The notes: generated by a model from the sequence alone, not told the origin. 64,000 nt of DNA from a virus (IMGVR_UViG_3300028833_000001:297446-361445); one strand, 5' to 3'; counted from the first letter of the stretch, positions 44,624 through 50,640 are shown. Translations and numbers: made by a program.

Positions 44624-44769
44624 GCTCCTATAGTTCAATGGACAGAACAGAAGTTTCCTATACAAGAGTAAACTTGTTTAAATCATTTCTATGTGAAATT
44701 GGTTTTATTGGGTTCGAGTCCCACACATAGAACAAACTTCAAATCTTGGTTCGAATCCAAGTAGGAGTA
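44624..44769 (+). tRNA. tRNA-Arg(CCT) interrupted by a 74-nt insertion (44660-44733)
   Basis: Removing the insert gives GAAGT-TTCCTAA-ACTTC with normal D, T and acceptor arms. Confidence 0.85.
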
Positions 44770-46016: not shown

Positions 46017-46086
46017 CGGGATGTAGTTTAATGTTAAAATAATTGTGCTTAGGACAGTGATATAGGTGCGAATCCTATCATCTCGG
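46017..46086 (+). pseudogene. Degenerate duplicate of the adjacent interrupted tRNA-Pro
   Basis: Shares its 5' end, T arm and trailer CAAATATTTCATAT with 46120-46252. Lacks G18G19, U33 and the TTC T-loop. Confidence 0.65.
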
Positions 46087-46119
46087 CAAATATTTCATAT
46101 AGTATAAACATAATAGCAT

Positions 46120-46252
46120 CGGGATGTAGTTTAATTTGGTAAAATGCGTTAATTTTTTCGTGTTTTGTTCTTTAAAAACACAGACAGCAACTTTTCTTTA
46201 AAATTATTGTTTTGGGGAAACCGTGTTATAGGTTCGAATCCTATCATCCCGA
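46120..46252 (+). tRNA. tRNA-Pro(GGG) interrupted at 28/29 by a 60-nt insertion (46149-46208)
   Basis: Removing the insert gives CGGTT-TTGGGGA-AACCG. C1-G72 and A73 give Pro identity. Confidence 0.75.
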
Positions 46253-48310: not shown

Positions 48311-48378
48311 CTTAAAATAAAATTTATCCCGAAACGTGTTTTTAGCTTTTTATGACTATTTATAAAAAAAATAGTAAT

Positions 48379-49083
48379 ATGAATAATTTTGAAAATTGCA
48401 AATCGTTAAATGACATTGCTAGGCAAGAATTTGGAAAAGCAAACTATACTAATCGTGAGAAAGCTAAAAAACTATTATTTGAACACGGAATAGATTGGTT
48501 AGATTGGCTAGAATCTATTAAAATTTCTAATAAAAAGTTTTGTCTTGTTTGTGGTAAAGAATTAAGAAATGGTCAAACAAAATTTTGCAGCCATTCATGT
48601 TCTGCTGGATATAACAATAAGTTTCGAAAAACATATAAAGATAATGAAAGCCGAGAACATCATGAAAAAATTACCAAAAGTGACAAATTCTGTTTGTATT
48701 GTGGCGCAAAATTAACAAATCAACAAAAATTATTTTGTAATAATAAATGTCAACAAGATTTCAAGTATAAAGAATATATAGACCGATGGATAAATGGTGA
48801 TGAAAATGGTTTAAAGGGCCAGTATTCTTTATCAAGGCACATCAGGCGATTTTTATTGGAAAAAACAAATTGTAAATGTGAAAAATGTGGCTGGGGAGAA
48901 AAAAATCCATATACAAACACAATCCCATTAGAAATACATCATATTGATGGTGATTATACAAATAACAAGGAAGAGAATCTTCAGGTTTTGTGTCCAAATT
49001 GTCATTCTTTAACAGAAACACACAAATCACATAATAAGAACGGAAGACAAGGTAGAAGAAAATATTATAAAAAAACAGAATAA
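48379..49083 (+). CDS. HNH endonuclease with two CxxC..FCxxxC Zn modules
   Basis: CEKCG..LEIHHIDGDYTNNKEENLQVLCPNCH. Start placed at MNNFE after ACTATTTAT (48355-48363). Confidence 0.9.
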   Translation: MNNFENCKSLNDIARQEFGKANYTNREKAKKLLFEHGIDWLDWLESIKISNKKFCLVCGKELRNGQTKFCSHSCSAGYNNKFRKTYKDNESREHHEKITKSDKFCLYCGAKLTNQQKLFCNNKCQQDFKYKEYIDRWINGDENGLKGQYSLSRHIRRFLLEKTNCKCEKCGWGEKNPYTNTIPLEIHHIDGDYTNNKEENLQVLCPNCHSLTETHKSHNKNGRQGRRKYYKKTE

Positions 49084-49350: not shown

Positions 49351-49354
49351 GCAA

Positions 49355-49423
49355 GTGGAGTAGCTTTATAAGGATGAGCCTTGGATTTTACCAAGAGGTG
49401 GTAGTTCGAATCTGCCCTCCACA
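49355..49423 (+). ncRNA. tRNA-like RNA with a 6-nt anticodon loop
   Basis: GTGGAG/CTCCAC, GCTT/GAGC, CTTGG-ATTTTA-CCAAG, GGTAG-TTCGAAT-CTGCC. Confidence 0.6.
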
Positions 49424-49642
49424 ACAAAAGCAAACGAAACCAGTTGACCAGATGGGATAAAACGCATAGTCATCCGTGATGCCACTGCGGATTAATAAAT
49501 AGATGGCTAAGACGGAGGTAACGTTACCGTTTAAACAACTATATTTTTAATGCTGACAGAGCGGGCGTGGAAAGTTCTTGAAATGTTAATATAAAACTGC
49601 CAGAATCGCAAAATTGTACGGGTTTGCACGTGCAAAACTTTT

Positions 49643-49714
49643 GGGGAGGTAGCTCAACGGTAGAGCAACTGGCTGTTAACCAGTAGGTTGTGGGTTCGAA
49701 ACCCACCCTCCCCG
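49643..49714 (+). tRNA. tRNA-Asn(GTT)
   Basis: ACTGG-CTGTTAA-CCAGT, G73. Confidence 0.92.
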
Positions 49715-49719
49715 CGAAT

Positions 49720-50132
49720 ATACCAATTAACAGTAGGCTTGAAAGCAGCCATCTGATAATGAGTTGCGAGAGGAAGTTTGCGTGGAAGTCATGACTCCGC
49801 AAAATAACAAGGCGCATGTGAGTAACTTGGCAATAAGCATGTGAGAAACACCTCAGGAATAGCGAACGTGGAAATCCCCGATGCAAAGAAAGGAACACAG
49901 TTGAAATACTGTGCGAGGTTCCAGTAGCGTGACGGTGCATCGAAGCTATGTAGCTAAGTTTTATGTAAGCCCCAACAGTACGAGAGGAACCTGGGGTCAA
50001 TGGGTGCCATGAATTTGGTTTCTATGCCGTAAGTGAGTCGGTAAAGAACGCGAGAAGTATCAAGTGAAGACTCGCGCCCAAAAGCATAAAACAGTCCTTA
50101 GAGCATTTGGCGTGGCAGCACATAATTGGTAT
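49720..50132 (+). ncRNA. Large ornate RNA with a 23S H43/H44 mimic (GOLLD-like candidate)
   Basis: ATACCAATTA/TAATTGGTAT ends; AGTAGGCTTGAAAGCAGCCATC; GGCGTGGCAGCAC; many internal helices. Confidence 0.7.
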
Positions 50133-50135
50133 TAT

Positions 50136-50207
50136 GCGGGTATAGCACAACGGTTAGTGTGCCAGCTTGCCATGCTGGAAATGTCAGTTCGATTCTGATT
50201 ACCCGCT
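50136..50207 (+). tRNA. tRNA-Gly(GCC)
   Basis: CCAGC-TTGCCAT-GCTGG, U73. Confidence 0.93.
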
Positions 50208-50212
50208 CATAT

Positions 50213-50287: not shown

Positions 50288-50512
50288 AAGTCAAGAACAG
50301 ACCACCGAGTAGTGTTCGGGGTAAATTGAATGGGGATGTATACTTAACCAGTCAATGTAGTCTTGGGTGGTGTGACCCTCAGCCCGATGAAAAGTGTCAG
50401 TTATCGTGAGGTACTGTAGCGCAACGCAACAGGAGGTAAAACCCTATGTGGTAACGCAATCCTCGTCTAGCCGAGGTTTCTCCAGTCCGTAGCTCGTAAA
50501 TTTTCTTGACTT
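50288..50512 (+). ncRNA. Unidentified ~225-nt structured RNA
   Basis: AAGTCAAGAA/TTCTTGACTT perfect closing stem; CGAGT/GCTCG, TGGGGA/TCTCCA, CCTCG/CGAGG. Confidence 0.6.
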
Positions 50513-50521
50513 ATTTTTTTT

Positions 50522-50640
50522 CGGGGAGTAGCTCAGTTGGTTAGAGCGCGTAATGTAGATTCTTGTAAAAGAATCAAACAGCAATGTTTACGAATGTCAT
50601 TTGAAGACCGTGGTCGTGGGTTCGAGTCCCACCTCCCCAG
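50522..50640 (+). tRNA. tRNA-Gln(TTG) interrupted at 28/29 by a 45-nt insertion (50551-50595)
   Basis: Removing the insert gives CGGTC-ATTTGAA-GACCG; weak 1:72 pair, G73. Confidence 0.8.

Follow-up and report, generated by a model that had tools for sequence, protein, structure and literature searches.

We analysed a 64,000-nucleotide (nt) stretch of DNA, hereafter the window, that forms the end portion of a 361,445-bp IMG/VR phage record estimated to be complete (IMGVR_UViG_3300028833_000001). A tRNA array occupies 42.4–51.3 kb of the window; it comprises at least 26 genes, each on the + strand (Rfam and ARAGORN), and its gap between tRNA-Asn and tRNA-Gly is filled by a 413-nt element at 49720–50132 (+). 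This element is best explained as the gene for a stable non-coding RNA, neither rRNA nor coding. Comparison with its relatives confirms that the ends of the predicted RNA make up a self-closed copy of the GTPase-associated centre (GAC) of 23S rRNA (helices H43 and H44, E. coli 1051–1108, the 58-nt uL11-binding domain). The insert that separates the two halves of this copy adds the core of the sarcin-ricin loop (SRL), so that the RNA would imitate both rRNA halves of the ribosomal factor-binding site.

tRNA-Asn(GUU) (49643–49715, +; 76.9 bits with the Rfam tRNA model, also called by ARAGORN) lies directly 5′ of the RNA with a 4-nt spacer, and tRNA-Gly(GCC) (50136–50208, +; Rfam and ARAGORN) directly 3′ with a 3-nt spacer. 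Scans for promoter- and terminator-like sites between the RNA and these neighbours stayed at chance level, and the open reading frames (ORFs) that overlap the RNA, which overlap tRNAs too, have no Pfam match. An RNA gene co-transcribed with the tRNAs is the simplest reading. Judging from its position, the RNA would be transcribed together with the array and released by tRNA-processing enzymes, with RNase P cutting the 5′ end of tRNA-Gly and the upstream tRNA-Asn being trimmed at its 3′ end. The RNA is single-copy in the phage genome. Folding of the single sequence is energetically unexceptional (z = −1.4), so the support for an RNA structure is comparative, not thermodynamic.

A predicted GTPase-associated centre at the RNA ends

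The RNA is closed by a perfect 10-bp stem, P1, in which ATACCAATTA (49720–49729, +) complements TAATTGGTAT (50123–50132, +) and which replaces the top of H42. An earlier note on this DNA had proposed such a stem around a GAC domain rebuilt with about 340 nt inserted in H44, and both features hold: the two sequences that it quoted, AGTAGGCTTGAAAGCAGCCATCT and GGCGTGGCAGCAC, lie at 49732–49754 and 50109–50121, and the insert measures 335 nt within the H44 internal loop. Alignment to the Rfam large-subunit (LSU) rRNA model places the insertion point after GAGU (1087–1090) and before G1091. The H43 copy (49731–49755, +; E. coli 1057–1081) has a lower stem CAG/CUG and GGCUUGAAAGCAGCC, with G at 1067 and A at 1068. 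It is followed by the junction AUAAUGAGU (49756–49764, +; 1082–1090), which keeps the 1082:1086 pair (A:U here), G1087 and A1088. On the 3′ side, UUUG leads into the H44 copy GCGUGGCAGC-ACA (50106–50122, +; E. coli 1091–1103), with G at 1095 and 1096 and C at 1097; within GCGUGGCAGC (50110–50119) the stem, G1093, U1094 and A1098 are retained and 1095–1097 differ.

Three sets of rRNA features are recovered in this arrangement. The conserved H43 loop, UUAGAAGCA on a GGC/GCC stem with a lower 3-bp stem, differs only at 1067 and 1068. An H44 hairpin of the form GC/GC stem with hexaloop G-UAAU-A is present (family consensus GCGUAAYAGC). Among the junction and tertiary elements, the 1082:1086 pair is kept and covaries in the RNA family described below, and the bases of the G1087-C1102 pair, the bulged A1088 and the base-triple positions G1071 and C1072 are present in sequence and near-invariant in that family. 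By blastn, 49733–49762 aligns to nt 1059–1088 of E. coli 23S (rrlH) with 23/30 identities. Counted position by position over E. coli 1056–1088, 23 of 33 match, and six of the ten differences are three two-sided pair changes (1057:1081, 1058:1080 and 1082:1086). The 3′ piece, GCGUGGCAGCACA, matches E. coli 1091–1103 at 9 of 13 positions.

The phage RNA thus shares with the bacterial GAC its helices, loop sequences, junction UAAAGAGU, 1082:1086 pair, G1087/A1088 and G1071/C1072. It differs in being free-standing, with H42 exchanged for an arbitrary stem and with 1090 and 1091 separated by an insert, and the window copy departs further in having G at 1067, A at 1068, A at 1101 and the H44 loop GUGGCA.

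A family of phage RNAs

More than 150 loci carrying related RNAs were fetched, none of them a real 23S gene. Across these loci the GAC helices show strong covariation. A scan of viral contigs with GGCTTRRAAGCAGCCATC gave at least 119 loci, and 121 H43-bearing viral loci each match E. coli 23S over only about 30–40 nt and share the context pattern GGAnGUn-GGCUUAGAAGCAGCCAUC-nnYUAAAGAGU. RNAs were delimited by a script that sought a downstream GCGnnnYAGC and then the complement of the 5′ flank, which yielded 76 complete RNAs of 58–445 nt; one longer delimitation looks spurious. The family pattern, P1 - H43 - YUAARGAGU - Pi - insert - Pi′ - UUUGGCGUAAYAGCACA - P1′, is one that the window RNA fits in register, and its 3′ consensus was recovered though absent from the search pattern. 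A viral search with the 3′ half alone found further loci, 52 of 70 with the H43 half upstream. The same search of prokaryote assemblies gave 121 matches, of which 27 have the H43 half upstream, mostly on contigs of metagenome-assembled genomes (MAGs); the others are as many as chance would give for a 17-mer in 596 Gb. Inserts range from about 30 to 350 nt, with differing architectures on one conserved core, and the smallest members (58–116 nt) are little more than the GAC domain itself.

Base changes across the family follow the rRNA structure. The lower 3-bp stem of H43 is fully paired in 106 of 129 distinct contexts, with eight Watson-Crick triplet types, and the unpaired contexts include chance motif matches elsewhere. 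The tertiary pair 1082:1086, drawn as a base pair in the Rfam LSU consensus structure, is U:A in 41 cases, C:G in 41 and A:U, as in the window, in 6. Loci retrieved through the 3′ half give a view that is unbiased for H43: in these, G1063, C1072 and A1077 are invariant, G1071 and A1073–C1075 vary in <3%, and variation is focused at 1065, 1067 (A 83%, G 15%), 1068, 1070, 1076 and 1078. The H44 stem pairs G1091-C1100 and C1092-G1099 are invariant with zero covariation, which fits the part that these pairs play in base triples with G1071 and C1072 in the rRNA domain. P1 covaries among close relatives and across the family consists of 5–21 bp of unrelated sequence. An RNAalifold consensus on six sequences mis-paired H43 and was overridden by the family-wide covariation. 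The earlier note had also raised uL10 as a possible ligand; this is unlikely, as the stem that stands where H42 would be is free to change in both sequence and length, and with so arbitrary a stem no uL10 site of H42 is left.

These RNAs have no family in Rfam 15, and a gathering-threshold scan of the whole window returned only tRNAs. The sole relevant Rfam match of compact members is to LSU_rRNA_bacteria at positions 1096–1145 (26.5 bits) and 1085–1152 (13.2 bits), both below the gathering score; these matches fall exactly at the GAC and provide independent confirmation that sequence and structure together correspond to it. GOLLD and ROOL RNAs are likewise large, structured, non-coding, often phage-borne and found near tRNAs, and the earlier note had suggested a short GOLLD relative. 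That kinship finds no backing: neither the 2.6 kb around the RNA nor a 420-nt stretch has a GOLLD or ROOL match at E≤10 in sequence and structure, and we know of no rRNA-like modules in those families. We consider it highly improbable that the RNAs are distant GOLLD/ROOL relatives or pieces of host 23S that were captured and have no function. Local sequence identity to 23S and the occurrence of GOLLD RNAs, too, in phage tRNA regions speak for such origins. Against them stand the absence of a GOLLD/ROOL match, the restriction of rRNA similarity to just two short matches in a new topology with a purpose-built closing stem, and pervasive covariation across more than 100 diverged copies.

Large phages from rumen, gut, freshwater and soil samples carry the family in abundance. 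The window RNA itself had no match among 50,697 GenBank phage records with blastn at default stringency; cultured carriers surfaced only when a compact member served as the blastn query. These carriers, in which the RNA is unannotated, are Cronobacter GAP32, Pectobacterium CBB, Yersinia fHe-Yen9-03 and -04 and Serratia BF, together with Xanthomonas XaC1 and XacN1, several Erwinia jumbo phages, Paenibacillus Pd_22F, Pseudomonas pf16 and Aeromonas 4_4572. The GAP32 member (positions 1490–1745 of locus L348; JN882285 about 289,508–289,763) is about 250 nt long, lies between GAP32_395 and GAP32_396, and has P1, H43, junction, insert and H44 half, with no clear SRL hairpin. Members in tandem occur about 320 nt apart on a 174-kb viral contig (L066, 5138–5708) and about 1 kb apart on a MAG contig (L229, 4000–5400). 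Since cultured phages carry family members, experiments are feasible.

A sarcin-ricin-type hairpin in the insert

Within the insert, AGUACGAGAGGA at 49977–49988 is identical at 12/12 positions to E. coli 2654–2665, the SRL core (blastn against 23S); we estimate the chance of an exact 12-mer in 413 nt at about 2e-5. The earlier note overlooked this core, which sits at the tip of a CCCCA/UGGGG hairpin that it listed only as a stem. The whole hairpin (49969–49997, +) has the stem GCCCCA/UGGGGU and the loop ACAGUACGAGAGGAACC, and contains a bulged-G module AGUA/GAA, a C-G-closed GAGA tetraloop and a helical stem that covaries, with 19 distinct sequences in 30 RNAs. It shares with the rRNA SRL (H95, E. 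coli 2647–2673) the bulged-G module, C-G closing pair and GAGA tetraloop, and has in the window a short irregular region below the motif.

A joint pattern that required the H43 half and, suitably spaced from it, GUACGRRAGGA gave 9 viral and 33 metagenome loci, which define a GAC+SRL class of 30 distinct full-length RNAs of 365–445 nt. The window RNA carries the features of this subclass (the Pi helix with GA on both strands, Px, GGAAG-helix-CAAG, the SRL-type hairpin and the pseudoknot strand, all described below), in which the hairpin lies 224–257 nt after H43. Its nearest relatives are L003 and L143 (92% identity), followed by L140, L148 and L151 (74–77%); other class members share 42–51%. 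The SRL class is not clearly present in any of the cultured carrier phages found.

As the joint pattern forced the SRL core, conservation of the core was checked in class members that a search with just H43 had retrieved. Ten distinct RNAs with the class-specific junction were recovered in this way. Eight keep AGUAC, a 4-nt loop and GGA, with the loop being GAGA, GGGA, GAAA, CAGC or AGGC, and the remaining two, which are shorter, read AGUAC-CGUY-AGA. The predicted bulged-G module, closing C-G pair and loop length are conserved, and tetraloop identity is not; in this tolerance the class differs from the rRNA SRL. The class profile matches E. coli 23S only at 1055–1088 and 2651–2665. Two further rRNA-like segments were rejected: a 23/28 match to 23S 1634–1660 is unconserved in relatives, and the 9-mer UUGAAAUAC, equal to 23S 2166–2174, is not significant.

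A predicted pseudoknot that would exclude the SRL fold

The earlier note had raised a possible AGGTTCC/GGAACCT pseudoknot, and covariation in 31 RNAs now supports it. Its 5′ strand AGGUUCC (49916–49922, +) complements 49986–49992 in the 3′ half of the SRL-type hairpin. In all 31 RNAs examined, a strand 55–62 nt 5′ of the hairpin complements this 3′ half: positions opposite G2664, A2665 and 2666–2668 are paired in 28–31 of the 31, with 3, 6 and 5 pair types at 2666, 2667 and 2668, respectively, and 15 distinct 5-mers. Complementary runs of at least 6 bp occur in 30/31 RNAs, as against 40% for shuffled targets. The phage class differs here from the rRNA SRL, in that the 3′ half (2663/4–2668/9) can pair with a conserved, covarying strand some 57 nt upstream, and this pairing precludes the S-turn. 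Pseudoknot and SRL fold cannot coexist because both need G2664 and A2665, the SRL fold for its S-turn.

Both folds bear marks of selection. From these patterns we conclude that the predicted SRL-type hairpin is either displayed or masked, with half of it covered by the pseudoknot. The conserved competition suggests a built-in switch, of interest for RNA structural biology. It is possible, though we hold it doubtful, that the RNA is a switchable, free-standing replica of the docking site, which with its GAC bound by host uL11 and its pseudoknot opened would engage proteins that otherwise require an entire ribosome, such as translational GTPases, RelA with tRNA, or ribosome-targeting defence toxins. 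Such a replica would give large phages an RNA-only means to rewire or shield host translation.

Architecture of the insert

The remainder of the insert was compared among relatives by register-anchored scripts. At its base, helix Pi pairs UGC (49765–49767, +), which is followed by GA (49768–49769), with GCA (50103–50105). Pi is paired in 81 of 87 RNAs with 32 triplet types, and the GA beside it on both strands is conserved throughout the SRL class. Helix Px (GNGG:CCNC) then pairs GAGG (49770–49773, +) with CCUC (49851–49854). It occurs in six covarying types (GAGG, GUGG, GGGG, GCGG, GCCGG and GGUGG), each with a matching partner, in about 30 RNAs, and encloses in order a conserved GGAAG, hairpin P2, CAAG and hairpin P3. 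P2 (UUUGCG...CGCAAA, 49777–49803, +), identified from alignments, is flanked by the conserved GGAAG and CAAG, and its outer helix covaries between classes in an alignment read by eye. P3 (49813–49843, +) shows compensatory changes at two pairs among six close relatives.

Helix P4 pairs AGGA (49855–49858, +) with UCCU (50095–50098), with A:U replaced by G:C in three of six relatives. In comparative alignments its 3′ strand continues through the linker UA and the GA into the 3′ strand of Pi (50095–50105, +). P4 closes a large two-part region. The first part ends in P5, a hairpin CACAGU-UGAAAU-ACUGUG (49896–49913, +) with compensatory changes at five of seven pairs and a T-loop-like UGAAAU loop that is conserved in the long class. 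The second part holds the SRL-type hairpin and others. Its closing 9-bp helix pairs 49958–49966 (+) with 50084–50092, with U:A changed to A:U in three of six relatives, and it includes the hairpin CGCGAG...CUCGCG (50049–50076, +), again with compensatory changes in close relatives. Of the stems listed in the earlier note, CACAGT/ACTGTG, CCCCA/TGGGG and CGCGAG/CTCGCG thus gain support from compensatory changes; CGATGCA/TGCATCG does not stand, as relatives favour AUCCCC with GGUG-AU and AUGC with GCGU instead.

An insert this ordered, with its own covarying helices and a pseudoknot, and the variety of insert lengths and architectures mounted on one core, would suit a borrowed scaffold. The GAC fold would then be a stable closing module, and function would reside in the variable insert, for example as a ribozyme, ligand binder or self-assembling RNA, and be unrelated to the ribosome. 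A mere clamp, however, needs neither near-rRNA loop bases nor the same tertiary pair, and the smallest members have barely anything beyond the GAC domain. The second element in this class is, moreover, the SRL, which works together with the GAC on the ribosome, and its exact 12-mer is improbable by chance. We judge a borrowed scaffold to be quite unlikely.

Genomic associations and candidate partners

Among 102 loci, a tRNA gene lies within 20 nt of the RNA in 41, within 300 nt in 62 and within 2 kb in 73, always on the same strand. No recurrent neighbour protein family was found among 179 loci. The largest neighbour cluster, an HNH homing endonuclease at 12 of the 179 loci, includes the window gene at 48352–49083, and its presence near the GAC-mimic RNAs is as expected of a mobile homing endonuclease. 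The next clusters are a CCA-adding enzyme (7 loci) and then TerD/TerF-like proteins. The phage genome encodes no homologue of uL11, bL12, a translational GTPase or RelA/SpoT. With no such homologue in the phage and no recurrent neighbour family, a partner protein must be the host's.

The tRNA array has several other features. The endonuclease gene at 48352–49083, with Pfam HNH and DUF2116 treble-clef matches, lies within it. The Rfam tRNA model spans 44624–44769, 46120–46252 and 50522–50640 (119–146 nt), which ARAGORN leaves uncalled and which are tRNA genes with large inserts. A weak tRNA-model match at 49354–49424 (32.7 bits, barely over the gathering score) appears only in the sensitive scan and is also uncalled by ARAGORN. 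The tRNA at 46017–46087 has the anticodon UUA and would read UAA; stop-codon recoding, considered on this account, is unsupported by ORF statistics for the standard code versus each stop reassignment. A second conserved non-coding stretch of about 213 nt (50300–50512) is bordered by tRNA-Met on one side and by the insert-bearing tRNA at 50522 on the other. For the most part it is identical to L003 6935–7205, in which a 62-nt block is inserted, and it has no Rfam match at E≤10 and an unremarkable folding energy.

Conservation within the RNAs separates two kinds of base. Those that build the fold are conserved, and those that contact factors vary, namely 1067, 1095–1097 and the SRL tetraloop. 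On the ribosome, A1067, A1095 and the SRL tetraloop contact EF-G, tRNA and thiostrepton (PMC5829649, PMC8661411). With fold bases conserved and factor-contact bases variable, it is the GAC fold, not the factor contacts, that seems to be selected.

This pattern bears on two further explanations. The RNA could be a decoy for ribosome-inactivating enzymes that hit the GAC or SRL, whether from defence systems, toxin–antitoxin systems or competitor toxins, and so spare host ribosomes for phage translation. Phage tRNAs are thought to replace tRNAs lost to defence nucleases, and the location of the RNA among them, as well as the failure to find a phage-encoded partner protein, would suit such a role. 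Enzymes against both elements exist: Tre23 ADP-ribosylates H44 at 1095–1098, and VapC20/26 and ribotoxins cut the SRL (PMC8661411). However, the bases that these enzymes target (1095–1097 and the SRL tetraloop) are the least conserved, the decoy would compete with tens of thousands of ribosomes, and the pseudoknot would hide the SRL. A decoy is unlikely on balance.

A trap or activator of GTPases, in which the GAC and SRL together would bind EF-G, EF-Tu–tRNA, IF2 or RelA–tRNA and cause sequestration or futile GTP hydrolysis, has its basis in the joint formation of the factor-binding centre by the two elements (PMC2330231). On the ribosome, the A/R-state tRNA in complex with RelA is likewise contacted by A1067 and A2660/G2661 (PMC5829649), and isolated SRL and thiostrepton-domain oligonucleotides bind EF-G and IF2 with micromolar Kd (PMC3496166, citing Munishkin and Wool 1997). 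Yet the affinities of these oligonucleotides are no better than micromolar, the factor-contact bases are unconserved (G1067 and G1095 in the window, GGGA or non-GNRA loops in relatives) and most members lack an SRL. We regard this explanation as very unlikely. The phage RNA resembles a natural, single-molecule version of these 'ribosome-in-pieces' oligonucleotides, which bind EF-G or IF2 off the ribosome; they are laboratory molecules of exact rRNA sequence, whereas the phage RNA has a larger natural fold and altered factor-contact bases.

Discussion

Our tentative preference, held at somewhat less than even confidence and drawn from comparative sequence evidence, is that the RNA mimics the factor-binding site away from the ribosome and captures one of the host proteins that normally bind there, with host uL11 as the likeliest direct partner and the SRL as a second, gated contact. 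Host uL11 would bind the GAC copy, since it is the tertiary fold of this domain that uL11 recognises. A protein that on the ribosome reaches across both elements would find a further contact in the SRL-type hairpin. During infection, the captured protein would in this way be drawn off host ribosomes. The binding of EF-G and IF2 by the isolated oligonucleotides mentioned above is a precedent.

Several observations weigh against this capture of uL11. At the base of H44, adjoining the insertion point, the family departs from the E. coli GAC with its A1090-U1101 pair: nearly all members have A at 1101, where it faces G or A at 1090. The window copy has G at both 1067 and 1095, and its binding may differ from that of rRNA. 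G at these two positions, where the rRNA bases meet EF-G and thiostrepton, argues against thiostrepton binding, which resistance mutations lead one to expect to be poor, and weakens a pure GTPase-binding reading. The SRL-type hairpin may be masked mostly, or its SRL resemblance may be partly sequence-level only. The protein uL11 resides mostly in assembled ribosomes and is dispensable in E. coli, which makes the benefit of titrating it questionable. Finally, members vary sevenfold in length and most are without the SRL element, so that the GAC copy alone must suffice for any core function.

Full-text searches of the literature turned up no account of this RNA family. The rRNA mimics known so far are leaders that act in cis on ribosomal-protein operons, for example the L10 leader (Rfam RF00557). 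The idea is shared, in that these leaders imitate an rRNA protein site and bind a ribosomal protein off the ribosome. They are, in contrast, cis-regulatory parts of bacterial mRNAs upstream of the gene that they regulate, whereas the phage RNA is a stand-alone gene among tRNAs, with no gene for uL11 or another ribosomal protein near it or elsewhere in the phage genome. As a phage gene of its own that copies the GAC, and in this case the SRL too, the RNA is different in kind from these mimics.

The question is directly testable, as Cronobacter GAP32, Pectobacterium CBB and other cultured jumbo phages carry members. If our reading is right, the RNAs would offer a natural minimal system for the recognition of GAC and SRL by uL11, translation factors, stringent-response factors and ribotoxins. 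Phages would then be making a transportable fragment of the ribosome, a few hundred nucleotides that comprise its most conserved functional surface. Such RNAs would form a class of their own, new among viral non-coding RNAs, and would manipulate or protect translation by a new route.

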